Source: Aneurinibacillus sp. (lineage in GTDB: Bacteria; Bacillota; UBA5301; DYFA01). From it: a DNA stretch of 64,000 nucleotides. The notes below the pieces were generated by a model. The model did no database searches, was not told where the DNA came from, and saw only the letters and a program-made list of their open reading frames with translations. A program made the translations under genes and the position numbers. Below, piece after piece: positions 8,955-54,645 of this stretch (the stretch's first letter is position 1; each line of letters opens with the position of its first letter). The DNA lies in NCBI GenBank assembly GCA_020725425.1, contig DYFA01000027.1, positions 24,131-88,130 of the forward strand, read 5' to 3'.

Positions 8955-8989
8955 TCCCGCCGGCGCCCAGTCCTGGACGATCAAGGACT

Positions 8990-10183: not shown

Positions 10184-10764
10184 ATGGGCTCCCGTGGAAG
10201 TATTCGCGGCAAAGCTGCGCAAGCGAGGCAGTCGATGGGAGGTACGAGGGTGAGACGGTGGAGAGAGTGGAGCGCGAGAGTAGCAGCGGCTCTTCTGCTG
10301 CTCTCGATGCTGGTCCCGACGGCGCTGGCGGGAGACACGGGGCTCAGCGTGGCGGTCATGGACTTTGAGGACGCGTGGAGCGGACCCGGCTCGAGCAGAT
10401 CATGAAGGAGCAGAACTTCCAAGCGGGCACTGCGGTGGATGAGTCCACCGCGGTGCAGCTCGGAAGGGTGTTGGGCGTGCGGCTCATGGTCCTGGGCGCC
10501 GTGACGGAGTTCAACGTGAGAGGGATCAGCGGGCTGTCGGTCGGCAACATTGGACTGGGTGTGCAGACCGCCTCGGCCAAGGTGTCGGCTCGCTTGGTGG
10601 ACGTCCAGACTGGAGAGATCCTTGCCGCGGTGAAAGGTGAAGGCAACGCCTCCGGCGGGGCGGGCGCCATCAAGGTGGTGAGTGTGGATCCGGCGGCCTC
10701 CGTGGCCACCGTTTCAGAGTCCCAGGATGAGATCCAGGTAGGGGATGTGGTCGAGACTGAGTAA
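10184..10764 (+). pseudogene. Disrupted CsgG/TolB-N-like periplasmic protein gene (frameshifted, possibly internally deleted)
   Basis: Two overlapping ORFs in different frames (10184..10405 and 10375..10764) together encode a signal peptide, LSVAVMDFED, then LEQIMKEQNFQ...LGVRLMVLGAVTEF. This is a CsgG-like motif order, but about 40 residues between the motifs are missing. Confidence 0.4.
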
Positions 10765-22215: not shown

Positions 22216-24111
22216 ATGGTTATTCTGCTTCTGGTCGCCATCCCGCTGGCGGCGGGGTTGTTCACGCTGATCGGCGGGGCGTGGACGAGATACGTCGCCG
22301 TGGGTGGGGCCGTCCTGTCGCTTCTCTCGGGGGCAGCCCTCGTTCTGGCGCACGGCCGCCTCGCCCTGGATGCCGCCACCCTCCTCGGCGGCTTCCGTCC
22401 CGGCCCGCTCTTCGGGATTCTCGATGCCCTGCTCCTGGCCTACATCGGCCTGACCGGCTGGCGGCTGCGGCACCTCCTCCTCACCCTGCTTGCCTTGGTA
22501 CAACTGGCTGGGATCCTCTACCTCGAAGGGGTGCCCCGGCCCGAAGCCGGCCGCTTCGTCGTGGACGGGCTCTCGGCAGTGATGGTGCTCGTCGTCTCCG
22601 TCGTGGGTTCGCTGGTGGCCCTCTTCAGCCTCCCCTACATGCGGGAGTACGAGCGGCACGCCCAGGGCACGGCGGGACCCAGGCGCTTTTTCGCCGTGCT
22701 CCTCGCTTTCCTCGGCCTCATGAACGGCCTCGTCCTGGCCGATGACCTTCACTGGGTCTACTTCTTCTGGGAGGCGACCACCCTTGCCTCATTCCTGCTC
22801 ATCTCCCATCCGCAGTCGGGCGACGCCGTCCCCAACGCGGCCTATGCGCTGACGGTCAACTCGCTCGGAGGCGTGGCCTTCGTCGGCGCTCTGGTCCTGC
22901 TCGCGGGGCGGGGAGAAGCGTCCCTCGAACAGCTCGCGGCGACACCGCCTGCTCCCGGAATCCTCGTGCCGCTGGGGCTGCTCCTCTTCGCCGCCTTCAT
23001 CAAGGCCGCCCAGTTCCCCTTCCAGCGCTGGCTCACCGCGGCCATGGTGGCCCCCACCCCGGTCTCAGCCCTCCTCCACTCCAGCACCATGGTGAAGGCC
23101 GCCGTCTACCTCGTCCTTCGCCTGGCGCCGGCCTTCCGCGGCACACCCCTGGCGCTGGCGGCCGCCGTCTACGGGGCCTTCTCCTTCTTCGCCGGTTCGG
23201 CCACAGCCATCGGACAGGCCAACGGAAAGAAGGTGCTGGCCTACTCGACCATCGCCAACCTGGGGCTCATCATCGCCTGCGCCGGTGTGGGGACGACCGG
23301 CGCCCTCGCCGCCGCGATCCTCCTGGTCCTCTTCCACGCCGCCACCAAGGCGCTCCTCTTCCTCTGCGTGGGGACGATCGAGCACGGCATCGGCACCCGC
23401 AACATCGAGGAGATGGAAGGGGTCATGTGGAAGATGCCGGTGACGACGGTCCTAACCGTTCTCGCCATGCTGGCGATGGTGGTCCCCCCCTTCGGCATGC
23501 TGATCGGAAAGTGGCTGGCGATCGAATCGAGCGTCCGGACCCCGCTGGTCCTGGCCTTCGTCGTCTTCGGCTCCGCTTTCACTCTCGTCTTCTGGTCCAA
23601 GTGGATCGGCCGGATTCTCACCGTCTCCTACCACCGGAAGTTCCGCTGGGAGCGCCTGCCCGTCCTCCTCCGCCTTCCCAAGCTCCTGCTCCTTTTGGCC
23701 GTCTTCTCTGGGAGCATCGGCGTGGCGCCCCTCTACAACCGGCTCGTCCGGCCGGTGATCGTCGACCAGTTCGACGCCCGGGGCTTTGTCCGAACCGGCG
23801 GGGGAGGACTGACCACCGGCTTCGGGGATTTCCTGCCGTGGCCCATTTTCCTGGTCATCCTGGGAGTGCTGCTGCTCCTCCTCGTCATGGTCGGCCGACT
23901 CGAACCGGAGGACGCCCGACCGCCGTATCTTTGCGGAGAGAACGCCGACCAGAAGCCGGGAACGTCCTTCCACACCGCCCGGGACGAGGTGGAGATCGCT
24001 GAGACAGGCAACTTCTACCTGGAGTCGGTCTTCGGCGAGGGAATGGTGCGCCAGTGGGCCGACCCGCTAGCCCTGGCGATCCTGTTGCTGATGGTGGGGT
24101 TCCTGCGGTAA
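22216..24111 (+). CDS. echA: Ech-type hydrogenase membrane subunit (NuoL/MnhA antiporter-like; EchA/HyfB-like)
   Basis: 631-aa polytopic protein of the complex I antiporter-subunit family. First gene of an ech-like operon. Confidence 0.75.
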   Translation: MVILLLVAIPLAAGLFTLIGGAWTRYVAVGGAVLSLLSGAALVLAHGRLALDAATLLGGFRPGPLFGILDALLLAYIGLTGWRLRHLLLTLLALVQLAGILYLEGVPRPEAGRFVVDGLSAVMVLVVSVVGSLVALFSLPYMREYERHAQGTAGPRRFFAVLLAFLGLMNGLVLADDLHWVYFFWEATTLASFLLISHPQSGDAVPNAAYALTVNSLGGVAFVGALVLLAGRGEASLEQLAATPPAPGILVPLGLLLFAAFIKAAQFPFQRWLTAAMVAPTPVSALLHSSTMVKAAVYLVLRLAPAFRGTPLALAAAVYGAFSFFAGSATAIGQANGKKVLAYSTIANLGLIIACAGVGTTGALAAAILLVLFHAATKALLFLCVGTIEHGIGTRNIEEMEGVMWKMPVTTVLTVLAMLAMVVPPFGMLIGKWLAIESSVRTPLVLAFVVFGSAFTLVFWSKWIGRILTVSYHRKFRWERLPVLLRLPKLLLLLAVFSGSIGVAPLYNRLVRPVIVDQFDARGFVRTGGGGLTTGFGDFLPWPIFLVILGVLLLLLVMVGRLEPEDARPPYLCGENADQKPGTSFHTARDEVEIAETGNFYLESVFGEGMVRQWADPLALAILLLMVGFLR

Positions 24112-24161
24112 GGCCTGTGAGGTTAATACAGCGCACCTCCCGGCGGGAGACTATAACTTCG

Positions 24162-25034
24162 ATGGTTTACCGTCCACTCCTGATCGCTTTTGGAGTCCTT
24201 GTCCTGGCGCCGCTCCTGGGCGGGCTCCTCACCGGGTTCGACCGGTGGCTCTCGGCGCGCCTCCAGGCGAGGGTCGGCCCTCCGCTCTGGCAGCCCTTCG
24301 CCGACCTGGTGAAGCTGTGGCACAAGGACCGGCTCACCGTCAACGTGGTGCAGATCCTCTACGCCAACGCCTACCTACTCTTCGTCGCAGCTGCCCTGGC
24401 GGAGCTGGCCCTGGGCCACGACCTCCTGATGCTTCTCTTCACCCTCGCCTTCGGCACCATCTCGCTGGTGCTGGGGGGGTTCAGCGTCCGCTCCCCCTAC
24501 AGCCGGTTCGGAGCCCAGCGGGAGATCATGCAGCTTCTGGCGTACGAACCGATCCTGGTTCTGATGGTGGTGGCGATCTACCTCCGAACGGGCAGTTTCC
24601 TGGTGAGCCGGGTGGTCGTCTTCCCACGACCCTTGCTCCCCAGCCTGCCCCTGATCTTTCTCGGCTACCTGCTGGTCGTCGTCATCAAGCTGCGCAAGTC
24701 CCCCTTCGACCTGGCCACCTCACTCCACCACCCCCACCAGGAACTGGTCAAGGGCATTCTCACCGATTATTCCGGGCCATACTTGGGCATCATCGAGCTG
24801 GCCCACTGGTACGAGCTCGTCCTGCTTCTCGGTCTGGCGGGTCTCTTCTGGGCGACCAGCGTCTGGGCGGCGGCCGGGGTGGCTCTCCTGGTCTACCTGG
24901 CAGCCATCACCGTCGACAACGTCTCCGCCCGGGTTACCTGGGCCTGGATGCTGCGCTTCGCTTGGCAGGCGGGGCTGGGGTTGGCCGCCATCAACGTAGT
25001 CTGGCTGTACCTTTGGGGGGCGGGTATGCCGTGA
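24162..25034 (+). CDS. echB: Ech-type hydrogenase membrane subunit (NuoH/HycD-like; EchB)
   Basis: NuoH-family helices and N-terminal LLGGLLTGFDRWLSARLQARVGP..WQPFADLVKL. Confidence 0.8.
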   Translation: MVYRPLLIAFGVLVLAPLLGGLLTGFDRWLSARLQARVGPPLWQPFADLVKLWHKDRLTVNVVQILYANAYLLFVAAALAELALGHDLLMLLFTLAFGTISLVLGGFSVRSPYSRFGAQREIMQLLAYEPILVLMVVAIYLRTGSFLVSRVVVFPRPLLPSLPLIFLGYLLVVVIKLRKSPFDLATSLHHPHQELVKGILTDYSGPYLGIIELAHWYELVLLLGLAGLFWATSVWAAAGVALLVYLAAITVDNVSARVTWAWMLRFAWQAGLGLAAINVVWLYLWGAGMP

Positions 25035-25531
25035 GCATCGTGCGGTGGGCCCGGGGGAAGTCGCCCTGGTATTTCCACTACGAGACGGGGAGCTGCAACG
25101 GGTGCGCCATCGAGGTCTTCGCCCTCCAGACCCCCCTCTACGACCTGGAACGGTTCGGGATCATGAACACCGGCAACCCCAAGCACGCCGACCTCCTCCT
25201 CGTCACCGGCTGTGTCGGGTATCGGAGCGGGCGGGTGCTCCGGAACCTGTACCACCAGATGCCCGGGCCGAAGGCGGTGGTGGCGATCGGGGTCTGCGCC
25301 CTGACCGGCGGCATCTTCCACGACTGCTACAACCTGGCTCCGGGGGCCGACAAGGTGATACCGGTGGACGTCTACGTGCCGGGGTGCGCCCCCTGGCCGG
25401 AGGCCATGATCGACGGGATCCTCCTGGCGGCGGAGAAGCTCCGGGGGGCGCCGGTGGCCCGGGACCGCCGGCGCCTGGTCGAAGAGGAGGAACCGCCGGC
25501 CGGGGGGGCGGGGGAGGAGGGGAAGGCATGA
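25031..25531 (+). CDS. echC: [NiFe] hydrogenase small subunit (NuoB-like; EchC)
   Basis: NuoB-like Fe-S motifs GSCNGCAIE, AIGVCALTGGIF, VPGCAP. GTG at 25031 overlaps the upstream stop (GTGA). Confidence 0.85.
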   Translation: MSIVRWARGKSPWYFHYETGSCNGCAIEVFALQTPLYDLERFGIMNTGNPKHADLLLVTGCVGYRSGRVLRNLYHQMPGPKAVVAIGVCALTGGIFHDCYNLAPGADKVIPVDVYVPGCAPWPEAMIDGILLAAEKLRGAPVARDRRRLVEEEEPPAGGAGEEGKA

Positions 25532-25896
25532 TCCCGGACGTCACTCAGGTGGGAGTGGAGCAGTTGCTCACGGTGGTCCAGGGCTTGGCGGAGGAAGGGT
25601 GCCGGCTCGTCTCCATCACCGGCGTGGACGCCGGCGACGCCTTCGAGCTGCTCTACCACTTCGACCGGGAGTTGCGCCTGACCCACCTGCGGGTCCGTCT
25701 CCCGAAGGGGCAGGAACTGCCCAGCATCAGCCGGATCTACTTCTGCGCCTTCGTCCCCGAGAACGAACTCCAGGACTTCTTCGGGATCAGGGTGGCCAAC
25801 CCGGTGATCGACTACGGGGGGCACATGCTCCTCGCCCGCGAGTCGCCGGAGACGCCTCTCGTCAAGCGGGAGCGGCCGGAGGGGGCAGAGCGCTAG
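25528..25896 (+). CDS. echD: NuoC-like subunit (EchD)
   Basis: 122-aa NuoC/30 kDa-like domain. ATGA overlap with echC. Confidence 0.7.
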   Translation: MIPDVTQVGVEQLLTVVQGLAEEGCRLVSITGVDAGDAFELLYHFDRELRLTHLRVRLPKGQELPSISRIYFCAFVPENELQDFFGIRVANPVIDYGGHMLLARESPETPLVKRERPEGAER

Positions 25897-26975
25897 TGCC
25901 CGGCCAGAGCGTGATCCCCTTCGGGCCCCAGCACCCCGTCTTCCCCGAACCCCTCCAGTTACGCCTGGTGATGAAAGAGGAGCGGGTGCTGGAGGCCGTC
26001 CCCGCCCTCGGCTACATGCATCGGGGCTTGGAGAAGCTCGCTGAGACGAAGGACTACGCCCAGAACGTCTTCCTCATGGAGCGGGTCTGCGGCATCTGCA
26101 GCTTCATGCACTCCCTCTGCTACTGCCAGGCGCTCGAGGATCTGATGGGAATCGAGGTCCCGCCCCGGGCCCGCTACCTCCGGACCATCTGGGCCGAACT
26201 TGGCCGCCTCCAGTCCCACCACCTCTGGCTGGGCCTTTTGGCCGACGCCTTCGGGTTCGAGAGCCTCTTCATGGAGTGCTGGAAGAACCGGGAGATCGTG
26301 ATGGACCTCTGCGAGGCGACCACGGGGAACCGGGTGATCATCTCCGGCAACGCCGTCGGGGGCTGCCGGCGGGACCTCGAACCCTCGGTCCTGAAGGAGA
26401 TCGGGCGGCGGATGGACGACCTGGAGCGAGGGTTGGACCGGGTGGCGCCGGTCTTCCAGGACGACCCCCTGATCAAGCAACGCACTGTCGGGACGGGGAT
26501 CATCACCCGGGAGGAGGTCATCCGGCTTGGGGCGGTGGGGCCGGTCCTCCGGGCCAGCGGGGTGGCGCAGGACATGAGGCAGCTCGGCTACGCCGCCTAC
26601 GGGGAACTGGACTTCCGGCCGGTGGTGGAAACGGGCGGGGACTCCTACTCCCGGCTGATGGCGCGCCTCGGCGAGACCTACCAGGCGATCGACCTGGTCC
26701 GGCAGGCGCTGCGGAGGATCCCAGAGGGCGAGGTGCTGCCGAAGGTCAAGGGACGCCCGGAGGGAGAGGCGGTCAGCCGGGTGGAGCAGCCCCGGGGGGA
26801 GCTCCTGTACTACGTCCGGGCCACCGGGAAGCCGCAGCTCGACCGGGTGCGGGTGAGGACCCCGACCCTCTCCAACATCCCCCCGCTCGTCCGGATGCTG
26901 GAGGGGTGCCGCCTGTCCGACGTGCCGGTGATCGCCCTCTCCATCGACTCCTGCGTCAGTTGCACCGAGCGCTGA
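25896..26975 (+). CDS. echE: [NiFe] hydrogenase large subunit (NuoD-like; EchE)
   Basis: N-terminal Ni-binding motif RVCGICSFMH and C-terminal DSCVSCTER (the DPCxxCxxR type, ending at the stop), as in Ech/Mbh group 4 enzymes. 359 aa. Confidence 0.9.
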   Translation: MPGQSVIPFGPQHPVFPEPLQLRLVMKEERVLEAVPALGYMHRGLEKLAETKDYAQNVFLMERVCGICSFMHSLCYCQALEDLMGIEVPPRARYLRTIWAELGRLQSHHLWLGLLADAFGFESLFMECWKNREIVMDLCEATTGNRVIISGNAVGGCRRDLEPSVLKEIGRRMDDLERGLDRVAPVFQDDPLIKQRTVGTGIITREEVIRLGAVGPVLRASGVAQDMRQLGYAAYGELDFRPVVETGGDSYSRLMARLGETYQAIDLVRQALRRIPEGEVLPKVKGRPEGEAVSRVEQPRGELLYYVRATGKPQLDRVRVRTPTLSNIPPLVRMLEGCRLSDVPVIALSIDSCVSCTER

Positions 26976-26994
26976 TTGCCTGCAGAAGAGGTGA

Positions 26995-27366
26995 ATGAGC
27001 GAAGTGTTCGAGATGCTCCGCGTCCTCAGCGCCAATCTCGGCCGCGGCCCGGCGACCCGGCGGTATCCGGCGGAGAAGCGAGCGATATTCCCCTCCTCCC
27101 GGGGGCGGATCGAGAGTGTCATCGAGAACTGCATCTTCTGCGGGGTCTGCCAGAAGCGGTGCCCGGCGGACTGCATCGTGGTGAACAAGGCGGAGAGAAC
27201 CTGGAACCTCGACCCCTACCAGTGCATCGTCTGTGGGGTGTGCGTGGAGGTCTGCCCGACGAAGGCCATCGCCATGCGGACCGAATACCGCAAGCCGCGC
27301 AGCGAGCGGACTCCCCTGACCCACCACCAGGAACCGGGACCCCGCGAAGGGCGGGTCGAAGGCTAG
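26995..27366 (+). CDS. echF: 2x[4Fe-4S] ferredoxin subunit (NuoI-like; EchF)
   Basis: Two CxxCxxCxxxCP motifs (CIFCGVCQKRCP; CIVCGVCVEVCP). Confidence 0.8.
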   Translation: MSEVFEMLRVLSANLGRGPATRRYPAEKRAIFPSSRGRIESVIENCIFCGVCQKRCPADCIVVNKAERTWNLDPYQCIVCGVCVEVCPTKAIAMRTEYRKPRSERTPLTHHQEPGPREGRVEG

Positions 27367-31713: not shown

Positions 31714-32985
31714 CTAGACCCGACGGAGGCGCTTCCGGCGGTTGGCGAGGTAGACGTCGTCCACCACGTCGTGGATGAGGGCCATGCCGAGCAGGTGCTG
31801 GCCGGCGTCGACCACCGGGATGGCCAGGAGGTCGTACTTGGTCATCACCTCGGCCACCTCGTTCTTGTGCGCATCCTCCTTAACGAAGAGGACGTGGGGG
31901 TCCATGATCGCCCAGAGCGGCTGGTCCGGCTCAGCCACCACCAGGTCGCGCAAGGAGACCACGCCGATCAGGTGCTGCTCCCCGTCGACGACGTACAGAT
32001 AGTAGGCCGAGTCCGGGTCCGGCTTCAGCCGCCGTAACTCCTCGATGGTTTGAGCGGTAGTGAGCTCCTCCCGGAAGGAGAGCACGTCGGTGGTCATCAG
32101 GCGCCCGGCCGTGTCCTCCTCGTATTCGAGCAGTTCCCGGACGTCCTCTGCCTCCTCGTCCTCCATCTGCTCCAGGAGTTCCTGAGCCCGCCGTTCCGGC
32201 AGCTCACCCAAGATGTCGGCCGCTTCGTCGGCCGGCATCGACTCCAGGATGTCGGAGGCCTTCTCTCCCCCCAACTGTTCCAGGACATCGGCCTGCGCTT
32301 CCGGCTCCATCTCCTGCAGGGTCTCGGCGGCCACGTCCACGTTCAGGGCGGACATGACCGCCGCCCGCTCCGGCCGGTTCAGGGCCTCCAGGATGTCGGC
32401 TAGGTCCGCCGGGTGGAGCTTGCTCAGCCGCTCGTACGGCACAGCGAGCTTGACCTGGTGGGGGGCGCTGGTGATGGGTTCCACGTCCCGCCAGGAGATG
32501 AAGTAGTCCTCGATCGGCTTGGGCAGGAGCTTATCCAAGCCATGGACCAGGCGGCGCAGCCCCAGCCGGCGCAGCAGGCCGCGCAGGCCCACCTCGACGG
32601 CCACGAGCCGCAGCACGCCGTTGATCTCGGCCAGCTTGATGTCGTTGATCCGCCGTACCTTCAGCCCGTTCAGGTCGACGATCTGCTTGTCGAGGAGGTC
32701 CCGCTTGAGATGGAGCAGCTTCTCCGGGAGGGATTGCTCGTCGACCTCGTCTTTCTGCACCGAAAGGGTCAGGTACTGGCGGACGAGCACCTGGATGAGC
32801 GACCAGGGAATCCTCCGGAGGGCGCCGCGCTTCGTCCGCACCTCCAGCCCCACCACCGGCGGAAACTCCTCCCCCGGCTCGACCAGGATATCGTTCACCC
32901 TGCCCAGACGCTTGCCGAAGCGGTCGACCACTGTCTTTTCGAGTAAGCGACTCGCGTGGATCTCAGGCACGATGGCGACGGACAT
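31714..32985 (-). CDS. Soluble PRC-barrel + MgtE-N + CBS-pair protein (no channel domain)
   Basis: MgtE intracellular N domain (LADILEALN..., acidic helix) and a tandem CBS pair. It lacks the MgtE transmembrane domain. ATG at 32985 after GGGAGGTGAG. Likely co-transcribed with the NRAMP gene. Confidence 0.7.
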   Translation of the reverse strand: MSVAIVPEIHASRLLEKTVVDRFGKRLGRVNDILVEPGEEFPPVVGLEVRTKRGALRRIPWSLIQVLVRQYLTLSVQKDEVDEQSLPEKLLHLKRDLLDKQIVDLNGLKVRRINDIKLAEINGVLRLVAVEVGLRGLLRRLGLRRLVHGLDKLLPKPIEDYFISWRDVEPITSAPHQVKLAVPYERLSKLHPADLADILEALNRPERAAVMSALNVDVAAETLQEMEPEAQADVLEQLGGEKASDILESMPADEAADILGELPERRAQELLEQMEDEEAEDVRELLEYEEDTAGRLMTTDVLSFREELTTAQTIEELRRLKPDPDSAYYLYVVDGEQHLIGVVSLRDLVVAEPDQPLWAIMDPHVLFVKEDAHKNEVAEVMTKYDLLAIPVVDAGQHLLGMALIHDVVDDVYLANRRKRLRRV

Positions 32986-32994
32986 GGTTCTCAC

Positions 32995-33255
32995 CTCCCG
33001 GCATCAAAAAGCCCCCGGCTTACTTTCACCGGGGGCGGAAACTTACATGCCTCGGGTACGGGCAGGCGCCTAGCCCCCCGTCTCCGACCTGTTTCCGGCG
33101 GTGGAAGAATGGCCGATTCCCAGAAAGACAAGCTGCTGCGGACTGTGACACGGGCTCCCGTCCATCTGCCACCACCACCTTAGGCCTGGCTGGTTCTTAA
33201 GCCGATACGCTCACGCTCCACCAATAACCTACTACGCCGACCAGCGCTTGTCAAC
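32995..33255 (-). promoter_or_regulatory. Promoter plus about 225-nt structured leader ending in an intrinsic terminator just 5' of the ribosome-binding site
   Basis: Minus-strand TTGACA (33254..33249), 17-nt spacer, TAGGTT (33231..33226). The leader then ends in GCCCCCGG-ugaaaguaa-CCGGGGGC followed by UUUUUGAU, about 8 nt before GGGAGGUGAG-ATG. Confidence 0.35.
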
Positions 33256-33261
33256 CGGTCA

Positions 33262-33281
33262 AGTCCAGGGCAGTCCAGGGC
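33262..33281. repeat. Tandem direct repeat 2 x GTCCAGGGCA between divergent promoters
   Basis: Exact 10-mer repeated in tandem immediately upstream of the trp -35 element. Confidence 0.4.
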
Positions 33282-33289
33282 AGTTCCCT

Positions 33290-33319
33290 ATTGACAGACA
33301 AGCCCGGCGTGCCTTAGAA
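33290..33319 (+). promoter_or_regulatory. Sigma-A-type promoter of the trp operon
   Basis: TTGACA (33290-33295), 18-nt spacer, TAGAAT (33314-33319). Confidence 0.6.
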
Positions 33320-33342
33320 TCCTTTCAAAGGCAGTGGCGCCC

Positions 33343-33448
33343 GGAGGGGAGCCAGCCGAGTCGAGGTCACAGGTTGAGTGGAGAAGAGACGAGCAAAGAG
33401 CAGGCAGGACCCGTTCAGGTCTGACTCTTTGGAGTCGGGCCGTTTTTG
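33343..33448 (+). promoter_or_regulatory. trp leader attenuator: GAG-triplet array followed by an intrinsic terminator
   Basis: Nine GAG triplets at 33343, 33348, 33357, 33362, 33375, 33380, 33385, 33390 and 33397, mostly 2-nt spaced. These are followed by the nested hairpin GACCCG..GACUCuuugGAGUC..GGGCC and then UUUUUGUU. Confidence 0.45.
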
Positions 33449-33484
33449 TTACCTCGTCCTTCTCCCGCCCCGGAGGTGGGAAAG

Positions 33485-35803
33485 GTGTCCGCAGACTTGT
33501 CCGTCCTGCGGGAGTCGCTTCCGCTCGTCACCGCCCCGCACCCGGAGAGGGTCCGGATAAGGTTAGGGGAGGTGGTCGCCGGCGGCCCGGTCCCGGTGGT
33601 CATCGCCGGCCCCTGCGCCGTGGAGAGCCTGGCGCAGCTCCTCCAGACCGCCCGGCAGGTCAAGGCCGCCGGCGCCCACGGCTTGCGCGGCGGCGCCTTC
33701 AAGCCCCGCAGTTCCCCCTACAGCTTCCAAGGTTTGGGTCGGCCAGCTCTGGAGATGTTGGCCGCGGCCAAGGTCGAGACGGGTCTCTTCCTGACCATCG
33801 AGGTGATGCGGGAGGCTGAGGTCGACCTGGTGGCCGACTACGCCGACCTGCTCCAGATCGGCGCCCGGAACATGCAGAACTTCGCCCTGCTGCGGGCCGT
33901 GGGAAGGTGCCCCCGCCCGGTGCTGCTCAAGCGGGGGATGGCCGCCACTGTCCGGGAGTGGCTGCAGGCCGCGGAGTACATCCTTGCGGAAGGGAACCCC
34001 AGCGTCATCCTTTGCGAGCGCGGAATCCGCACCTTCGAACCGTGGACCCGCAATACCTTCGATGTCGCCGCTATCTCCCTGGTGCGCAACCTGTCCGGAC
34101 TGCCGGTCTTCGCCGACCCCAGCCACGCCGCCGGCCGGCGGGAACTCGTTCCCCCTCTGGCCCGGGCCGCTCTGGCGGCGGGGGCCGACGGCCTCCTGCT
34201 CGAGGTTCATCCCGATCCGTCGAGGGCGCTCTCCGACGGCGACCAGTCGCTCACCCTGGAGGAGTTCGCAAACCTGATGCGCGGCCTGGCCCCGTTCTGC
34301 GCCGGCCGGGAGCCGGTTTCCCGCAGGAGCCGGCCGGCGGGGATCAGCCCGGCAGCCGGTGAGTTCCCGGAACTGGCGGCCCGCGGCTACCGCCACGCCC
34401 CGGTCTTCACCCAGTTCACCAGCGACGAGCTTACGCCGGTGGGGATTTTCCGTCGCCTGGTGCATCAGGGGCCCGGCTTCCTCTTGGAAAGCGTGGAGTC
34501 CGGGGGAAACGGAGTCGGCCGGTACTCCTTCTGCGGTGACCGCCCGCTCCTGACCCTGACCGCCCGGGGCCGCCGCCTGGAGCAGAAGGGGCCCGGCCGG
34601 CTCGAGGAGGCGTCGGAGGGCGACGTCCTGGACCGGCTGCGCGAGCTCCTGGAGGTGTTCCGCGTGGCGCCGGTCGAGGGGTTACCCCGCTTCTACGGGG
34701 GAGCCGTGGGCTATTTGGGCTACGACTACGTACAGGCGTTGGAACCCATCCCTGCGACCGCCCCGGACCCGCTGGGGCTGCCGGACTCCTTCTGGCTGGT
34801 GCCGGAGCGACTCGTGGTCCTGGACCACGTCACCGGCGCGGTGACAGTGATCATCCTGGCGCCGACGGACCGGGAGGGGTACGAACGGGCCTCATCCCTC
34901 CTCGAGGCCACCCTCGCCGAACTGCGCCAACCGTGCCCGGCGCGGGAAGCGAAGCCGGAACCAGCTGGAGCCCTCCTCTCTTCGGTCTCCCAGGCGGAGT
35001 TCTGCACGGCCGTGACGAAGGCCAAAGAGTACATCGCCGGGGGTGACGCCTTCCAGGTGGTGCTCTCCCGGCGGCTGACCACCCCCTACGCCGGCGACGC
35101 CGTTGAGCTGTACCGGGCCCTGCGCTCCGAGAACCCTTCGCCCTACCTGTTCCTCCTCGACTGCGGCGGTTTCCACCTGGTCGGCTCCTCCCCGGAGATG
35201 CTGGTGCGCCTGGAGGGAACTACGGCCGAGATCCGCCCGCTGGCAGGGACCAGGCCTCGGGGCCGGGACAGCGAGGCCGACCGGGCCCTTGAGGCGGAAT
35301 TGCGGGCTGACGCCAAGGAGTGCGCCGAGCACGTCATGCTGGTGGACTTGGGCCGTAACGACCTGGGGCGGGTCTGCCGGTTCGGGAGCGTTCAAGTGCC
35401 GGAGTTGATGGGGGTGGAGCGGTTCTCCCGGGTGATGCACCTCGTCTCCCGCGTCACCGGCGAGCTGGCGCCGGGCCAGGACGCCTTTTCGCTGCTCAAG
35501 GCGGTCTTCCCCGCCGGGACGCTGACCGGCGCCCCGAAGGTGCGGGCGATGCAGCTCATCGCCGAACTGGAGCCCTTCCAACGCGGCATCTACGGCGGGG
35601 CGGTGGGGTACGTCGGGTTCAACGGCAGTCTGGACGCCTGCATCGCCATCCGCACGGCGGTCCTCTGCGACGGCCGGGTCAGCGTGCAGGCCGGAGCGGG
35701 GATCGTCGCCGACTCCGACCCGGAGCGGGAGTACGCCGAGACGGCCCACAAGGCGGCGGCCGTTCTCGCCGCCGTCCGCCGGGCGCAGGAGGGACGGTCA
35801 TGA
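33485..35803 (+). CDS. trpE: Fusion protein: DAHP synthase (class I-beta, AroG/KdsA-like) + anthranilate synthase component I (TrpE)
   Basis: N-terminal [10 protein letters not shown]...[19 protein letters not shown]...IGARNMQNF...LLKRG...[10 protein letters not shown]...[10 protein letters not shown] matches the unadorned I-beta DAHP synthase core. A roughly 30-aa linker is followed by the TrpE body (LLESVESGG...GRYSF...[15 protein letters not shown]). One continuous ORF. GTG at 33485 after GGAGGTG. Confidence 0.85.
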
Positions 35804-36360
35804 TTCTCCTGATCGACAACTACGATTCCTTCGTCTATAACCTGGCCCAGTATCTGGGAGAACTGGGGGCGGAGGTGGAGGTCCAGCGCAACGACGCCGT
35901 GGACATTGCGGCCATCGAGCAGAAGGCCCCGTCGCACCTGGTCATCTCGCCCGGCCCCGGGTACCCCCGGGACGCCGGTGTATCGCTGACTGCCGTCCGC
36001 CACTTCGCCGGCCGCCTGCCGATCCTCGGGGTCTGCCTCGGCCACCAGAGCATCGGCGAGGCCTTCGGGGGCATCGTCGTCCGCTACCAGCCGGTCCACG
36101 GCAAGACGTCGCTCATCACCCACTCCGGCCGGGGCATCTTCGCCGGCCTGCCCAACCCCTTCCGGGCGACGCGGTACCACTCGCTGGTCGTGGACGCGGC
36201 CACCTGTCCGGCGGAGCTCGAGATCACCGCCACCACCGAGCCGGGCCTGGTGATGGGGCTGGCCCACCGGCGGTGGCCGGTCTTCGGCGTCCAGTTCCAC
36301 CCCGAGTCCATCCTGACTGAGGGGGGACACCGTCTGCTCAAGAACTTTCTGGAGATGTGA
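35800..36360 (+). CDS. trpG: Anthranilate synthase component II (glutamine amidotransferase)
   Basis: Class I GATase: [15 protein letters not shown], catalytic GVCLGHQ, C-terminal HPES. ATGA overlap with trpE. Confidence 0.9.
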
Positions 36361-36398
36361 GTCCAGACGAGAGACCCGGTTGAGCCGGGAACAGCTGA

Positions 36399-37421
36399 GT
36401 GGAGGCGAGAAGAGTGATCAAAGAAGCGATAGCCATGGTAGTTCAGGGACACGACCTCAGCGCCGACGACATGGCCCGGGTGATGGACGAGGTCATGAGC
36501 GGAGAGGCCACCCCGGCGCAGATCGGGGGACTGCTGACCGCCCTTCACATGAAAGGGGAGTCGCCGGCGGAGATCGCCGGGGCGGCTCGCACCATGCGGG
36601 CCAAGGCCACCAAGGTCCCGGTGAACGGGGACGGCCTGGTCGACACCTGCGGCACAGGCGGGGACGGCAAGCGCACCTTCAACATCTCGACCACCGTGGC
36701 GTTCGTTGTCGCCGGGGCAGGGGTGCGCGTCGCCAAGCACGGGAACCGGGCCGTCTCCTCCGGCTGCGGCAGCGCCGATGTCCTGGAGGCGGTGGGAGTC
36801 AGGATCGACCTGGCTCCCGAGCGCGTCGCGGCCTGCATCGACGAGGCCGGCATCGGCTTTTTGTTCGCGCCGCTCTTCCACACGGCCATGCGCCACGCCG
36901 TCGGCCCCCGCCGGGAGCTCGGCTTTCGCACCATCTTCAACGTCCTCGGGCCCCTGGCCAATCCGGCTGGCGCCTCCCGCCAGGTCCTGGGGGTCTACGC
37001 TCCCGAGCTGACCCGGACGATCGGCCGGGTTCTCCTGGACCTGGGGACGGAGCACAGCCTGGTGGTGCACGGGGCGGGCGGCGCTGACGAGTTGACCCTC
37101 GCCGGCCCCAACCTGGTCTGCGAGTGCCGGGGAGGCGAGCTCCGGGAGTACACTCTCCGGCCGTCCGACGTGGGGCTCCGGGAAGCCCCCCTGTCGGCTC
37201 TGGCCGGCGGGGACGCCCGGGAGAACGGGGAGATCATGCTCCGGGTCCTGCGGGGGGAGGAGGGACCGCGCCGGGAGGCGGTGCTCTTGAACGCCGCCGC
37301 GGCCCTGGTCGCCGCCGGGCGGGCCCGGGACCTGGCGGAGGGCGTCTCTCTGGCGGCCGAGTCGATCGACCGCGGGGCGGCTCTGGCCGCGCTGGAGCGG
37401 CTTCGCCGGGTGGCAGCCTGA
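36399..37421 (+). CDS. trpD: Anthranilate phosphoribosyltransferase
   Basis: Signature DTCGTGGDG and GAGVRVAKHGNRAVSSGCGSADVLEA. Alternative GTG start at 36414 after GGAGG. Confidence 0.9.
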   Translation: MEARRVIKEAIAMVVQGHDLSADDMARVMDEVMSGEATPAQIGGLLTALHMKGESPAEIAGAARTMRAKATKVPVNGDGLVDTCGTGGDGKRTFNISTTVAFVVAGAGVRVAKHGNRAVSSGCGSADVLEAVGVRIDLAPERVAACIDEAGIGFLFAPLFHTAMRHAVGPRRELGFRTIFNVLGPLANPAGASRQVLGVYAPELTRTIGRVLLDLGTEHSLVVHGAGGADELTLAGPNLVCECRGGELREYTLRPSDVGLREAPLSALAGGDARENGEIMLRVLRGEEGPRREAVLLNAAAALVAAGRARDLAEGVSLAAESIDRGAALAALERLRRVAA

Positions 37422-37423
37422 CC

Positions 37424-38254
37424 ATGTCCTTTCTCTCGGCTATCCTGGAAGCCAAACGCGCGGAGGTCCGCCGGGCCAGGCGCCGTGTCCCCGAGGCAAT
37501 CCTGGCGGCCAGCCCCCGCCCCGCCCGGCGGGACTTCTCCGCCAGCCTGCGGCAGGAAGGCCTTTCGGTCATCGCCGAGGTGAAGCGGGCTTCCCCGTCC
37601 AGAGGCCCTCTGGCCCCGGACCTCGACCTCGGCTGGCTGGTCAGCCGGTACGAGGCGGGGGGCGCCGCCGCGGTCTCCGTGTTGACCGACGGACGGTTCT
37701 TCGCGGGAAGCCTCGCCGACCTGCGAGCCATCCGGGAGCTGACCTCCCTGCCCCTATTGCGCAAGGACTTCCTGATCGACCCGTACCAGGTGGTCGAGGC
37801 GGCTGCGGCGGGGGCCGACGCCGTGCTGCTGATCGTCGCCTGCCTCAGTGCCCCTCAGTTGTCCGAGCTCTTGGCGGCGGCGGAGGAACAAGGTCTGGCG
37901 GCCTTGGTCGAGGTCCACACCCCAGCCGAACTGCAGACGGCCGTCGCCGCGGGAGCCAGGATCGTCGGACTCAACAATCGGGACCTCCACACGTTTGCAG
38001 TCGACCCGGGGACCACTCTGAGGCTGTTGCCGGAGGTTCCCCGGGGGTGCCTGGTGGTGGCGGAGAGCGGACTCCGTCAGCCGGAGGAGGCGGCCGCCCT
38101 GGCCCGGGCAGGGGTGGACGCCGTCCTGGTCGGGGAGGCCCTGGTCAAGAGCCCCGATCCGGCCGGACTGATCCGGGCTTTCCGGTTGTCGGCGGCGCGG
38201 AGATCCGCCGGACAGGTCCCTGCCGGAGAGGGGGACCGAGAGCATGTTTGTTAA
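37424..38254 (+). CDS. trpC: Indole-3-glycerol phosphate synthase
   Basis: TIM-barrel motifs (SVIAEVKRASPS; LRKDF; VGLNNRDL; ESG). ATG 3 nt after the trpD stop. Confidence 0.9.
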   Translation: MSFLSAILEAKRAEVRRARRRVPEAILAASPRPARRDFSASLRQEGLSVIAEVKRASPSRGPLAPDLDLGWLVSRYEAGGAAAVSVLTDGRFFAGSLADLRAIRELTSLPLLRKDFLIDPYQVVEAAAAGADAVLLIVACLSAPQLSELLAAAEEQGLAALVEVHTPAELQTAVAAGARIVGLNNRDLHTFAVDPGTTLRLLPEVPRGCLVVAESGLRQPEEAAALARAGVDAVLVGEALVKSPDPAGLIRAFRLSAARRSAGQVPAGEGDREHVC

Positions 38255-38879
38255 GATCTGCGGCCTGACCCGGGTCGACGAAGCGGTGGCGGCGGCAGAG
38301 GCCGGGGCCACCGCCATCGGGTTTGTCTTCGCCTCCTCCCCCCGACGGGTATCGCCCGCTCAGGCCCGGGTCATCGGGGAACGGCTGCCGCCGGGAGTCC
38401 TGCGGGTGGGGGTGTTCGTCTCGCCTGCGCCAGACGAGGTCGAGCAGACCCTGGCTGAGGCCGGCCTGGACCTGGCCCAGATTCATGGCGCCTTCCCGGA
38501 AGAAGGGTGGCTGCGCCTGGGCGATCGGGCGATCAGGGGGGTCAGGGTGGGGCAGGATGAACCCCACCCTGCTCTGACCACCGGCCGGCCGCGCTTTCTC
38601 CTGCTCGACACCTACCAGCCGGGGCTGGCCGGAGGAACCGGCCGGACCTTTGCCTGGTCCAAGGCCGGGGCCTTCCGGGCGCTGGGCCTGCCGCTCCTGA
38701 TCGCCGGAGGATTGGCCCCCAGCAACGTCCGGGCCGCTCTGACGGCCACGCGGCCGGCCGGAGTCGACGTGTCGAGCGGGGTGGAATCCTGCCCCGGGCG
38801 CAAGGACCCCGCCCTGGTCGCGGCCTTCCTGGCGGCGGTCCGGGAGTGGGAGGAGTCATTCGGAAGCAAAGGAGAGTAA
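38244..38879 (+). CDS. trpF: Phosphoribosylanthranilate isomerase
   Basis: MFVKICGLT...LLDT...GGTG...AGGL pattern typical of TrpF. Confidence 0.85.
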
Positions 38880-38884
38880 GGCAG

Positions 38885-40060
38885 ATGCGAGGCTACTTCG
38901 GTCCCTACGGAGGCCAGTTCGTGCCGGAGACCGTGATGGCGGCCCTGGAAGAGCTCGAGCAGGCATACGCCCGCTACCGCGAGGATCCGGTGTTTCAGGC
39001 GGACCTGGCGGCGCTCTACCGGGACTACGCCGGGCGACCCACCCCGCTCTACCACGCCCGGCGCCTCAGCGCCGAGGCGGGCGGGGCCCAGATCCACCTC
39101 AAGCGGGAGGACCTGAACCACACCGGCGCCCACAAGCTTAACAACACCCTCGGCCAGATCCTGCTGGCGCAGCGCATGGGGAAGCGGCGCATCGTGGCCG
39201 AGACCGGCGCCGGGCAGCACGGGGTGGCCACCGCCACCGTGGCGGCCCTCTTCGGGTGCGAGTGCGTGATCTACATGGGCGCCAAGGACATGGCGCGCCA
39301 GGCGCCGAACGTCGCCCGGATGCGCATGCTAGGCGCCGAGGTCAGGGCGGTCGCCTCCGGGAGCCAGACGTTGAAAGACGCCACCAGTGAGGCCATCCGG
39401 GACTGGGTCACCAACGTGGAGGACACCTATTACCTGATCGGCTCGGTGGTCGGCCCTCACCCCTATCCCACCATCGTCCGGGACTTCCAGGCAATCATCG
39501 GACGGGAGGCCCTGGCCCAGGCCAGGGAGCAGCTGGGGCGGCTGCCGGAGGCGGTCTACGCCTGCGTCGGCGGGGGGAGCAACGCCATCGGCATCTTCAC
39601 GGCGTTCCTCGCTCACCCGGAGGTCAGGCTGGTGGGGGTGGAAGCCGCCGGGTTGGGGCTCGAGACGGGAGCTCACGCCGCCACGCTCGCCTGCGGCCGG
39701 CCGGGGGTCCTGCACGGGGCGCTGAGCTATCTTCTCTGCACGAAGGAGGGTCAGATTCAGGAGGCTCACTCGATCTCGGCCGGCCTGGACTATCCCGGGG
39801 TGGGGCCGGAACACAGCTGGCTCAAGGATCAGGGACGGGTGACCTACACCGCCGCCACCGACGAGGAGGCGCTGGCCGCCTTCCACCGCCTGACCCGCCT
39901 GGAAGGGATCCTTCCGGCGCTGGAAAGCGCTCACGCCGTGGCGGCTGCCCTGCGGGACGCCGCCCGTCTCCCGGCCGGCCAGAATCTCGTGGTCAACCTC
40001 TCCGGGCGGGGGGACAAGGACCTGGCGATAGTGGCCGGGGAGGAGGGGGTCGCCGTATGA
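38885..40060 (+). CDS. trpB: Tryptophan synthase beta subunit
   Basis: PLP-binding site HTGAHKLNN, plus [18 protein letters not shown] and [19 protein letters not shown] ribosome-binding site. Confidence 0.95.
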
Positions 40061-40839
40061 ACCGGGTCGCCGAGCGTCTCGCCGGCCTGCGCGCTCAAGG
40101 CTGCAAGGCGTTCGTCCCGTTCGTCATGGCCGGCTACCCGGACCTCGAGGCCACTGCCCGACTGCTGGTCGGGCTCTCCCGGGCCGGGGCGGACGTGATC
40201 GAGCTCGGTCTGCCCTTTTCGGATCCCCTGGCCGACGGGCCGGTGAACCAGTCGGCCGCCCACGCGGCGCTGGCCGCCGGGACAACTGTCGACCGCGTCC
40301 TGGCCCTCCTGGCGTCGGTTACCCCGCACCTGGCCTGTCCAGTCATGCTCTTCACCTACCTCAACCCTGTCCTCCAGGCCGGGCCGGAGGTCTTCGCCGC
40401 CCGGGCGGCCGCCGCCGGTGCCGCCGGGCTGGTCATCCCGGATCTTCCCCCGGAGGCGGCCGGGGAGATCCGGGCGCACGCCCGGGAGCACGGCCTGGGT
40501 TTGGCTTTCCTGGTTGCCCCGACCAGTCCGGAGCAGCGTCTTCGCCTGGCCGGCCAGGCCAGCTCCGCCTTCGTGTACGCGGTCTCGCTCCGAGGCGTGA
40601 CCGGCGAACGCCAGACTCTCCCGCCCGACCTGCCGGACTTCCTCCAGCGGGTCAAGCGGCAAGTCGCGCAGCCGGTCCTGGTCGGGTTCGGGATCAGCAC
40701 GCCGGCGCAGGCCAGAGAGGCGGCGCGCTTGGCCGACGGGGTGATCGTAGGCAGCGCGCTGGTGCGACTCGCCGGGTCAGGCGGGGTGGACGCCGCCTGT
40801 GGGCTGGCGCAGGAACTGCGGGAGGCGATCCGGTGTTGA
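40057..40839 (+). CDS. trpA: Tryptophan synthase alpha subunit
   Basis: [36 protein letters not shown] overlap with trpB. Confidence 0.9.
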
Positions 40840-52840: not shown

Positions 52841-53251
52841 TCAGAAGGAGACCCGGAGGATCCCCAGCGGGCAGGCGGTCACGCACTGCTCGCAGACGAT
52901 ACATCTGTCCTGGTCGAAGGAGAGCTCCCAGCTCTCCGGGTTGAGCGCCAACGCCTGGGGGCGGCAGACGGCGGTGCAGGCCCCGCAGTGGATGCACTCC
53001 GCCTCGTTCCACGTGATCTCCCGGGAAAGCGGCTCCACCTGCGCCCCGTTCTCCCGGAGGAAGGCCAGCCCCCGCTCGACCTGTTCCTCCGAGGAGTTAC
53101 CGATCTCGAGGACGAGCTTTCCCTCCTCCTCAGGGGAGATGCGGGCGAAGAGGATGTTGATCACCAGGTCGAAGTCCTTGACCAGATGGTAGGTGAGGGG
53201 CTTCTCCGCAAGCCCGGGGGGGAAGGTGATGACGATGCGCTTCTTGATCAT
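52841..53251 (-). CDS. NIL-domain + 2x[4Fe-4S] ferredoxin protein
   Basis: N-terminal NIL-like domain (VITFPPGLAEKPLTYHLVKDFDLVINILFARI). Two Cys clusters CIHCGACTAVC and CIVCEQCVTACP. Confidence 0.7.
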   Translation of the reverse strand: MIKKRIVITFPPGLAEKPLTYHLVKDFDLVINILFARISPEEEGKLVLEIGNSSEEQVERGLAFLRENGAQVEPLSREITWNEAECIHCGACTAVCRPQALALNPESWELSFDQDRCIVCEQCVTACPLGILRVSF

Positions 53252-53254: not shown

Positions 53255-54421
53255 CTACTCCTCTCCTTCCGCCTGCCGGATAGTCAACGGCCGGAACGGG
53301 GTGGTGGCCGGGAGCGGCTGAACCGGCGGGTTCAGGGCGAACCGGCCGGCCCGCACCTCCTCCCGGAGCAGAGCGGCGATCCGGCGGGCCTTGGCCAGGC
53401 TGCTCAGGGGAGCAGTGGGAACGCGCCGGCCCTGCAGGGTCACGGCGCCGCTGCGCAGCTCGGCGTAGCTTACCTGCGCCAGCGCCGGCCGGGACCGGAC
53501 GGGGACGCCGTAATCGTAGACGCTGGTCAGGATATCCTTGTCCCGGATGGCCAACTGGGCGGCGAGGTCCTGGTCCAGTACCGGGATAGGGACGCCGACA
53601 CCGACGTAGAGCGTCACCCCGTAACGGTGGAAAACCGCCGCCCGGAGGTACTCGCGGCTCATCTCCTTCAGGTTGCCGATCAGCGCCAGGGTCCCCGCCC
53701 CGCCCAGCGGCACCCCCTGATCTGTCCGCTTGACGGCCGGGTTGTGCTGCGTCCCCTCCCAGGCCACGTAACCCTGGGCGCCGCCGAGGAAGACCCGTGT
53801 GCCGACCCCGATGGTGCGGTAGTACGGGTCGTTCAGGAGCGGGCTCAACTGGCCGGCGGTGGAGTAGGTGACGTTGCCGTACCTGGGCAGGAGAGTGCCC
53901 ATGTAGGTGTAGATGGTCCGGTCGGACCCGTTGGTCGCCGCAGCGTAGTTCTGGTAGGCGTTGCGGGGGTTGAAGAGATAGGCCTGGTTGACCTCGCGCA
54001 GGCTCACCCAGGTCTCCACCTCGCGCCGGGGGTAGCAGTCGGTTCCCTGGGAGACCGCCCGCAGCCGTACCCGTTTCCCGGCCACCAGTTCCTCGATGAC
54101 GTGGGCCCCGCCGTAGGTCGGGTCGAGTTCGGACTGCTCGGTGGCGCCGAGGTAGGCGTCCACGGCTGCCAGGCCTCCATAGGCCGGAACGCCGTTGAGC
54201 CAGACCCGGCTCATCTTGATCGGCGGGTCGGCGTGCCCGAAGTTCAGAAAAGCCCCGGAAGAACACATGGCGCCGAAGGTGGCGGTGGTGACCACGTCCA
54301 CCGTCTCGGCGGCCCGGTCAACCCCCTGCTCGTCGACCGCCTTCAGGAATTCCTCCTTGGTCAGGACGACCGCTTTCCCTTGGCGTATGCGGTGTGCGAT
54401 CTCTTCGTAGCTCTTGGCCAT
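53255..54421 (-). CDS. COG1900/DUF39 homocysteine biosynthesis protein (sulfide-dependent route)
   Basis: Characteristic N-terminus MAKSYEEIAHRIRQGKAVVLTKEEF...VDVVTTATFGAMCSSGAFLNFG...WLNGVPAYGG.AAVDAYLGAT. The gene is preceded by a SAM riboswitch. Confidence 0.7.
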   Translation of the reverse strand: MAKSYEEIAHRIRQGKAVVLTKEEFLKAVDEQGVDRAAETVDVVTTATFGAMCSSGAFLNFGHADPPIKMSRVWLNGVPAYGGLAAVDAYLGATEQSELDPTYGGAHVIEELVAGKRVRLRAVSQGTDCYPRREVETWVSLREVNQAYLFNPRNAYQNYAAATNGSDRTIYTYMGTLLPRYGNVTYSTAGQLSPLLNDPYYRTIGVGTRVFLGGAQGYVAWEGTQHNPAVKRTDQGVPLGGAGTLALIGNLKEMSREYLRAAVFHRYGVTLYVGVGVPIPVLDQDLAAQLAIRDKDILTSVYDYGVPVRSRPALAQVSYAELRSGAVTLQGRRVPTAPLSSLAKARRIAALLREEVRAGRFALNPPVQPLPATTPFRPLTIRQAEGEE

Positions 54422-54439: not shown

Positions 54440-54645
54440 GTCTCTGCCCCGCCCCGCGGCGGGGCGTAAAGAAAGCGCCTGTTCCCTTGAGTGGAAAGGC
54501 GCCGGACAGGCCGTTTCTCATCTCTCAGGAACTGCTTCCTGCAGGATTTGGCACCGCACGGCCGGGCCGCCGGTTGCCGAGGCTTCATCGGGCCAGTCCC
54601 TCCACCTCTCGCGATGAGACCTTTGTGGTATGCGGTTGTAGTTGT
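54440..54645 (-). promoter_or_regulatory. SAM-I (S-box) riboswitch with terminator-like expression platform
   Basis: Minus strand reads CUCAUCgcGAGAGGUGGAGGGACUGGCCCGAUGAAGCCUCGGCAACC...GUGCGGUGCCAAAUCCUGCAGGAAG...GAGAUGAGA, which matches the SAM-I core and P1 pairing. It is followed by GGCGCC...GGCGCUUUCUUUA. Confidence 0.8.

Follow-up and report, generated by a model that had tools for sequence, protein, structure and literature searches.

A type I-beta DAHP synthase fused in frame to TrpE heads a trp operon with a probable TRAP-type leader in a Bacillota metagenome-assembled genome

The DNA studied here is a 64,000-nucleotide stretch of a genome assigned to Aneurinibacillus sp. (GTDB lineage Bacteria; Bacillota; UBA5301; DYFA01), taken from contig DYFA01000027.1 of assembly GCA_020725425.1 (positions 24,131 to 88,130 of the forward strand) and called the window below; positions given without a locus name are counted from its first letter. 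It contains a gene in which a type I-beta 3-deoxy-7-phosphoheptulonate synthase, or DAHP synthase (DAHPS), is joined to anthranilate synthase component I (TrpE). A single open reading frame (ORF) on the + strand, free of internal stops, covers 33446..35803 and yields 785 aa if read from the first TTG. Translation likely starts at GTG 33485, giving a protein of 772 aa: a GGAGG Shine-Dalgarno sequence (33472-33476) lies nine bases before this codon, and the start agrees with the NCBI gene call and with the conserved N-terminus of the fusion family. The identical NCBI protein (P0001, labelled 'MAG: Bacillota bacterium', MAG meaning metagenome-assembled genome) comes from contig JASEFQ010000015.1 of GCA_030019095.1.

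Along the 785-aa form, Pfam places DAHP_synth_1 at 42-277 (E-value 5e-74), Anth_synt_I_N at 327-467 (2e-32) and Chorismate_bind at 516-769 (2e-96). The frame is unchanged between the DAHPS and TrpE halves and no stop codon lies between them. The first-pass annotation of this DNA had described an in-frame fusion of the two enzymes and had pointed to a stop or frameshift in the linker as what might undo it. All motifs it quoted are present in the translation of the one continuous ORF, neither a stop nor a frameshift occurs in it, and uninterrupted ORFs of this kind recur in independent assemblies. The fusion is thus genuine, one polypeptide with a complete type I-beta DAHP synthase barrel and a complete TrpE.

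The DAHPS domain extends over 33485..34303 (+) and takes up the first 273 or so residues of the 772-aa protein. It matches PF00793 with 249 bits (cutoff 25.5), TIGR01361 (DAHP_synth_Bsub, the Bacillus subtilis-type DAHPS domain) with 361.5 bits (cutoff 267.75) and NF006421 with 393 bits (cutoff 335). Residues 17-268 match the type I-beta structures 1vs1, 1zco and 1rzm (E 1e-80 to 1e-85), with 5j6f and 3nvt as further PDB matches. The alignment with 1zco, the 262-aa Pyrococcus furiosus enzyme, begins at its residue 7, and that with 1rzm, from Thermotoga maritima, at residue 75, which falls after the ferredoxin-like regulatory domain of that enzyme; the barrel is therefore without an N-terminal regulatory domain. 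Together with the Pfam search, in which no ferredoxin-like (FXD), ACT or chorismate mutase (CM) domain was found in the fusion protein, these alignment starts bear out the 'unadorned' N-terminus of the earlier description. No variation is seen at K73, R75, H214, E240 or D251 across 53 fused sequences, at least 90% of which also have C44, and the KPR(S/T) phosphate-binding motif, KPRS, is kept. Residues C44, H214, E240 and D251 sit at a constant offset of 13 from C31, H201, E227 and D238 of the P. furiosus enzyme, the metal ligands of that protein. The DAHPS half thus looks catalytically competent and would be metal-dependent.

Between the two halves lies a linker of roughly 15-20 residues (34304..34354, +; residues about 274-290) and of low predicted confidence, in which the 15-25 intervening residues show no conserved column and vary in length in an alignment of 84 homologues. 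The complete TrpE domain with the stop codon follows at 34355..35803 (+; PF04715, PF00425, TIGR00564). Its score for TIGR00564 (trpE_most), 521.5 bits against a trusted cutoff of 517.7, passes by a narrow margin. Over residues 293-768 the protein can be aligned along the full length of two solved anthranilate synthase component I chains of mycobacterial type, 7bvd and 5cwa. Pfam and NCBIfam matches above cutoffs therefore uphold both domain identities given earlier, an I-beta DAHPS core and a full TrpE. In the fused proteins the TrpE blocks LAGT, AEHxMLVDLxRND, FPAGTxxGAPK and AGAGxVxDSxP are invariant or nearly so; of the motifs of the tryptophan feedback site, FLLES(V) is found in 79 and NPSPY(L/M) in all of 84 sequences. 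Leucine instead of methionine after NPSPY was considered as a fusion-specific change and dismissed, as leucine is likewise present in 41 of 137 unfused TrpE sequences in which the motif was found. Working together with the separately encoded TrpG, the TrpE half would have anthranilate synthase activity.

An AlphaFold2 model of the monomer, built from the family alignment, reached a mean pLDDT (predicted local distance difference test) of 88 and a pTM (predicted template modelling score) of 0.65, with both domains well folded. The DAHPS domain is mostly above a pLDDT of 85, and linker residues 274-283 are below 50. The modelled protein resembles two domains held together by a flexible tether, and no intramolecular interface is confidently predicted.

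A search over 5.8 billion proteins, with members from NCBI, ENA, JGI and Logan assemblies, returned about 84 clusters of 730-833 residues in which all three Pfam domains recur; their identity to the query is 48-74%, with at least 95% of it covered. The cultured Hydrogenispora ethanolica carries the fusion in two independent isolate assemblies. In a HMMER search that was exhaustive over 1.84 billion 50%-identity representatives, full-length fusions accounted for only 2 (P0027 and P0086) of the 150 best hits, so the architecture is real but narrow. All fused proteins formed one clade against six unfused TrpE sequences in a neighbour-joining tree of the TrpE part, a small tree without bootstrap. 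Common occurrence in annotated genomes had been named by the first-pass annotation as a reason to drop the idea of an unusual fusion. In this respect the fusion is conserved in relatives, and hence not unique to the window, but it is confined to one narrow clade. The annotated names of the fused proteins are generic, either 'anthranilate synthase component I' or '3-deoxy-7-phosphoheptulonate synthase', and a UniRef entry exists for the H. ethanolica fusion. The close fused homologues P0003, P0004, P0009 and P0018 (54-74% identity) carry MAG labels such as 'Patescibacteria group bacterium' and 'Bacteroidota bacterium'; such labels do not fit a family set in Bacillota, and the MAGs may have been mislabelled or mis-binned.

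Two relatives were recorded with a TrpE shorter than the fusion. In one of them, P0082 at locus L089 (GCA_012840275.1, DULT01000262.1; 1657-4481), the unfused state was ruled out, the 523-aa TrpE being a short call on an intact fusion ORF of 787 aa (2118-4481). At the other, P0013 at locus L088 (JGI 3300045950, Ga0484001_0000059, a 329-kb contig; 7484-9491), the first trp gene encodes a 496-aa TrpE that shares 79-80% identity with the window protein over the latter's residues 289-771, and no DAHPS-coding sequence is present at the locus. L088 is syntenic with the window, with Nramp and MgtE genes upstream and trpGDCFBA, then AAA ATPase and PGA_cap genes downstream. Homology between the two loci takes in the promoter, leader, Shine-Dalgarno sequence and start codon of L088, and on the neighbour-joining tree the L088 protein is the sister of the window protein, deep within the fused clade. 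The most economical reading of these sequences is an in-frame deletion of the DAHPS domain, which would make P0013 a genuine domain loss. As TrpE is kept there without DAHPS, it is independent of the barrel, and the L088 organism presumably has another DAHPS. From this loss, the fused barrel would appear to be an accessory isozyme.

As the first-pass annotation had placed it, the fusion gene lies in a trp operon; it heads a complete seven-gene operon, all on the + strand. It is followed by trpG (35800..36360; glutamine amidotransferase subunit, PF00117), its start codon overlapping the fusion gene's stop (ATGA), and by trpD (36414..37421; PF02885, PF00591), trpC (37424..38254; PF00218), trpF (38244..38879; PF00697), trpB (38885..40060; PF00291) and trpA (40057..40839; PF00290). 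Seven-gene operons led by the fusion were also found in H. ethanolica (L082, L083), on a 1.1-Mb ENA scaffold (L084), in a Thermoanaerobacteraceae MAG (L085) and at L089, and at L087 the fusion is followed by trpG-D-C-F up to the contig end. No second DAHPS or other aro gene was found in the window. A profile scan of genome contigs, which matched TrpE motifs and returned unfused TrpE loci and so gives no taxonomic census of the fusion, covered at least 80 such loci; only L039 (Udaeobacter) had a separate co-directional DAHPS gene upstream, 730 bp from trpE. An apparent partial DAHPS match at L049 was not reproduced on re-examination.

Upstream of the fusion gene a sigma-70-type promoter (TTGACA-18-TAGAAT; 33291..33320, +) agrees with the consensus at 11 of 12 positions, with 0.1 such promoters expected in shuffled sequences, and its -35 and -10 hexamers are kept in L087, L088 and L089. 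The leader then begins with a 5' stem-loop (33330..33357, +; -17.1 kcal/mol, z -3.0), of which the block AGGCAGTGGCG..CCAGCC is conserved in four high-GC loci and which may, by analogy, act like the 5' stem-loop of B. subtilis. Nine GAG triplets at 33344..33400 (+), with start-to-start spacings of 5, 9, 5, 13, 5, 5, 5 and 7, form a putative binding site for TRAP, the trp RNA-binding attenuation protein. Measured against a yardstick of nine to eleven (G/U)AG triplets mostly 2-3 nt apart, five of the eight spacers are 2 nt long and the others 4, 6 and 10 nt. For the pattern GAGNNGAGNNGAGNNGAG, 0.01 matches were expected in the window and 2 were seen in the 64 kb, and by (G/U)AG density the triplet region ranks within the top 0.04% of 65-nt windows. 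The core GGAGAAGAGACGAGC of the run is invariant in four loci, with equivalent runs in L082, L084 and L085, and dense (G/U)AG runs in the leaders of L082, L084, L085, L087, L088 and L089 rank within the top 0.002-0.2% of 65-nt windows of each locus. The densest (G/U)AG stretch of the window lies elsewhere (10225-10285, +; 11 triplets in 65 nt). It was rejected as another TRAP target, since it falls at the start of a CsgG-like lipoprotein gene, is irregularly spaced and is probably due to chance.

The last triplets overlap a predicted antiterminator (33394..33431, +; -16.1 kcal/mol) in which CAAAGAGCAG pairs with CUGACUCUUUG and which also includes the 5' arm of the terminator, 33418-33431 being common to both structures. 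In L088 both strands of the antiterminator have changed in a matching way (GCAGAG with CUCUGU). The intrinsic terminator itself (33418..33449, +; -17.6 kcal/mol, z -5.0) consists of a 10-bp stem, a UUUG loop and an GUUUUUGUU tail, and is conserved in L087 and L088. A hairpin with U-tract is found in the leaders of L082, L084, L085, L087 and L088, but not in that of L089, where the GAG triplets are present and the terminator hairpin is missing (a gap of about 42 nt in the leader alignment). Further downstream, sequence and leader alignment place a hairpin, UCCCGCC/GGUGGGA, over the Shine-Dalgarno sequence (33463..33481, +). One of its pairs varies between G.U in the window, A-U in L088 and L089 and G-C in L087, which suggests a conserved structure that would control translation. 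An Rfam scan of 32900-33700 at gathering and permissive thresholds gave no T-box or other known RNA leader, and the leader showed no short ORF that combines tandem Trp codons with a Shine-Dalgarno sequence. The expectation that the gene stands under trp attenuation is thus supported and can be refined: with (G/U)AG triplets and a terminator, and with promoter and predicted antiterminator, the leader appears to be an attenuator of the TRAP type, not of the leader-peptide or T-box type.

In the Hydrogenispora-like relatives L082 (7753-8004), L083 (5300-5551) and L084 (9525-9776) the TRAP gene itself (mtrB, PF02081 TrpBP/TRAP, 83 aa) lies directly upstream of the fusion gene. The encoded proteins are 65% identical to B. 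subtilis TRAP, a match strong enough to show that the query was a real TRAP sequence. TRAP homologues in metagenomes amounted to 1919 clusters, and in at least 18 further ones the longest contig is equal in size to that of a fusion cluster, some just 3.9-4.9 kb long, which suggests that both genes are on the same contig. No TRAP gene was found in the examined flanks of L085-L089. A TRAP of high-GC type was sought among the 120 hits listed, and amino-acid composition cannot discriminate here as TRAP is too conserved. TRAP would therefore be expected to act in this organism on the strength of the leader and of the relatives, the window having no TRAP gene.

A second run of eight GAG triplets (36352..36414, +) ends on the Shine-Dalgarno sequence and GTG start of trpD. 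It is the second of the only two GAGNNGAGNNGAGNNGAG matches in the 64 kb, and its last four triplets have 2-nt spacers. Equivalent (G/U)AG runs occur at the trpG-trpD junction in L082, L084, L085, L087, L088 and L089. By analogy with the translational operator of B. subtilis pabA/trpG, this run may be a TRAP operator for trpD.

In B. subtilis the trp leader is controlled by TRAP (MtrB), and the layout of the window leader, as read from its sequence, matches it. The common layout has (G/U)AG triplets, which are 2-3 nt apart in B. subtilis and less regularly spaced here, a 5' stem-loop, an antiterminator and a terminator that exclude each other, as predicted for the window, and a hairpin over the Shine-Dalgarno sequence. 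The two systems differ in that the first regulated cistron here also encodes a DAHPS, an enzyme not known to belong to the B. subtilis TRAP regulon. In addition, mtrB is directly upstream of the operon in the relatives, whereas in B. subtilis it is unlinked to the trp operon (mtrAB); a second triplet run is found at the start of trpD; and the clade of the window's host lies outside the Bacilli.

Other features lie elsewhere in the window. A SAM (S-adenosylmethionine) riboswitch (54515-54620, -; 88.8 bits) precedes genes at 53255-54421 (-) and 52841-53251 (-) for homocysteine biosynthesis (PF01837 HcyBio) and a NIL/4Fe-4S ferredoxin. Mrp/complex-I-like genes (Proton_antipo_M, NADHdh, Complex1_49kDa/NiFeSe_Hases, 4Fe-4S) at 22216-27366 (+) resemble a membrane-bound group 4 [NiFe]-hydrogenase module, and part of this cluster is also present upstream in the syntenic L088.

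A natural DAHPS-TrpE fusion is not described in the literature searched by full text, though a mention in the trp-operon review of Xie et al. 2003 is possible. Since the proteins are already public under generic names, the sequence is not new; it is the architecture that appears undescribed and uncharacterised. The adornments described for type I-beta DAH7PS, another abbreviation of the same enzyme, comprise regulatory modules, which may sit at either end, and chorismate mutase in covalent linkage (PMC8408635). In DAH7PS-CM of Prevotella and Porphyromonas the fused enzyme domain transmits inhibition by prephenate and the domains are interdependent (PMC8408635; passages of PMC12202928). These C-terminally CM-linked enzymes, from Prevotella nigrescens and Porphyromonas gingivalis, come closest to the window protein: here too an I-beta barrel, itself without a separate regulatory domain, is followed by a linker and a chorismate-utilising C-terminal enzyme. 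The partner in the window is, however, a TrpE of about 480 residues and not an AroQ three-helix chorismate mutase; it commits chorismate to tryptophan and not to the Phe/Tyr branch and needs TrpG as a third subunit, and interdomain allostery, known for the CM-linked enzymes, is a candidate property in the window fusion. The CM-DAH7PS of B. subtilis, Listeria and Geobacillus and the Thermotoga DAH7PS with its ferredoxin-like/ACT module belong to the same subfamily (TIGR01361; 5j6f, 3nvt, 1rzm), but their modules, which the window protein lacks, are N-terminal and mainly regulatory.

Unfused DAHPS genes within or beside trp operons are known. Simkania has an aroA gene within its trp operon (PMC3937554), and in Sargasso Sea contigs trpA directly adjoins aroG or aroH (PMC2395257). 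Dedicated isozymes such as Simkania aroA and PhzC, from phenazine operons, resemble the window fusion in being an extra DAHPS that is co-regulated with one downstream branch and so safeguards its precursor supply (PMC3937554; PMC8772962; PMC6435475). AroH, the Trp-specific isozyme of E. coli, is a further example. All of these are separate polypeptides, AroH being of type I-alpha and PhzC of type II, whereas the window isozyme is covalently joined to the branch-point enzyme.

Other fusions of aromatic-pathway enzymes were met in the searches (among P0271, P0250, P0100 and P0104-P0120), including TrpA-TrpE (774 aa) and TrpE-TrpD (855 aa). A PhzE-like protein of 926 aa (chorismate-binding plus glutamine amidotransferase, GATase) carries a C-terminal I-beta DAHPS. 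Proteins of about 573-625 aa match prephenate dehydratase (PDT), ACT and DAHPS families, most of them also FXD, and one cluster of these has 178 members.

Altogether, we consider it probable that the gene encodes a two-enzyme polypeptide which heads a TRAP-attenuated operon and acts as a DAHPS isozyme dedicated to the Trp branch, with its expression and stoichiometry coupled to those of TrpE. At high tryptophan, TRAP would bind the GAG triplets and block the antiterminator, and the terminator would stop transcription before the fusion gene; abundant tryptophan would presumably also inhibit the TrpE domain at its conserved feedback site. When tryptophan is scarce, read-through would give the enzymes of the Trp branch and extra DAHP synthase in a 1:1 ratio with TrpE. 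The additional DAHPS would draw carbon into the shikimate pathway when the Trp branch requires chorismate, so that chorismate influx would rise alongside the capacity to withdraw chorismate into this branch. Escherichia coli has AroH as a Trp-specific DAHPS isozyme, and the logic proposed here is the same, reached via fusion. DAHPS and anthranilate synthase are seven reactions apart; therefore substrate channelling cannot be the benefit, which leaves regulation, through co-expression and fixed stoichiometry, or allostery as the advantage.

Several points weigh against this account. The accessory role that it would give to the fused DAHPS has a single domain loss, that of L088, behind it. The model at a pTM of 0.65 offers no confident interdomain interface and neither supports nor excludes allosteric coupling. 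No TRAP gene was found in the 64-kb window. With two long gaps (6 and 10 nt), the triplet run does not reach the regularity of the B. subtilis site. Chance can also produce (G/U)AG-dense stretches, such as that at 10225-10285, a caveat for taking triplet density by itself as a sign of a TRAP site. Finally, the energy of the antiterminator is no better than that of shuffled sequences (z -0.7).

That two adjacent genes were merged through a sequencing or assembly frameshift has a negligible chance of being correct. A MAG as the source and the gene call of L089, which spans the TrpE half only, would invite such a suspicion, but the L089 ORF is intact at 787 aa with just its call cut short, and the same unbroken ORF is seen in an isolate genome as well as in dozens of assemblies made independently. 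A local artefact is ruled out because one continuous ORF recurs in about 84 clusters from separate assemblies. Nor does it seem at all probable that one half has been misjudged, the DAHPS being a dead scaffold or the C-terminal enzyme being PabB or another member of the MST family (chorismate-utilising menaquinone, siderophore and tryptophan enzymes) instead of TrpE. TIGR00564 is indeed barely over its cutoff and PabB models score well too, yet the latter stay under their cutoffs; the metal ligands and the KPRS motif show little or no variation, the chorismate-binding half is located in a complete trpGDCFBA operon, and a TrpE N-terminal domain with Trp-site motifs aligns, with the rest, end to end to solved TrpE chains. 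A more serious contender, to which we give rather less than an even chance, is a near-neutral accident: aroA came to lie before trpE, the stop codon was lost, and co-expression of non-interacting domains is the sole consequence. Unfused DAHPS genes near trp operons do exist (L039; Simkania, PMC3937554; Sargasso Sea contigs, PMC2395257), the linker is flexible and unconserved, and one lineage lost the DAHPS domain. Against mere accident, about 84 clusters spanning deep divergence have kept the two enzymes fused, with one loss and no re-splitting observed, which argues for some selective maintenance.

A further proposal extends the isozyme explanation without contradicting it, namely that TrpE serves as an allosteric module, so that binding of tryptophan at the LLES/NPSPY site, or of chorismate, would rearrange the assembly and inhibit the DAHPS barrel; DAHPS substrates may in turn activate anthranilate synthase, a reciprocal bienzyme allostery resembling that of the DAHPS enzymes with C-terminal chorismate mutase. 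We regard such coupling as possible but doubtful. The partner is C-terminal as in the DAH7PS-CM enzymes of Prevotella and Porphyromonas (PMC8408635; passages of PMC12202928), the DAHPS domain has no other regulatory domain, the Trp-site motifs are conserved, and the fusion has been retained down to about 45% identity despite non-consecutive reactions between which channelling is impossible. On the other hand, the linker is variable in sequence and length and predicted to be disordered, the pTM of 0.65 comes with no fixed interface, and L088 dropped the DAHPS domain yet retained TrpE. Taken furthest, and only tentatively, the protein might represent a new class of Trp-sensitive I-beta DAHPS in which a whole TrpE is the allosteric sensor of tryptophan, chorismate or both and governs entry into the shikimate pathway, perhaps with reciprocal activation. 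It would then link step 1 to the Trp branch point, with TRAP adding a layer of control that reaches trpD translation.

DAHP synthase is a textbook case of allostery through recruited domains, and the enzyme-enzyme fusions in the literature searched are those with chorismate mutase. If the two domains of the window protein do not communicate, it would be merely another aromatic-pathway gene fusion, a common kind. As a natural fusion of two non-consecutive steps, it provides a clean system in which to ask if fusion alone can create cross-pathway feedback, and the domain loss of L088 is a natural control for its effect. The fusion is also a ready-made design for the metabolic engineering of tryptophan overproduction. 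For the lineage itself, the isozyme reading, if true, would put a DAHP synthase under TRAP control in Bacillota outside the Bacilli.

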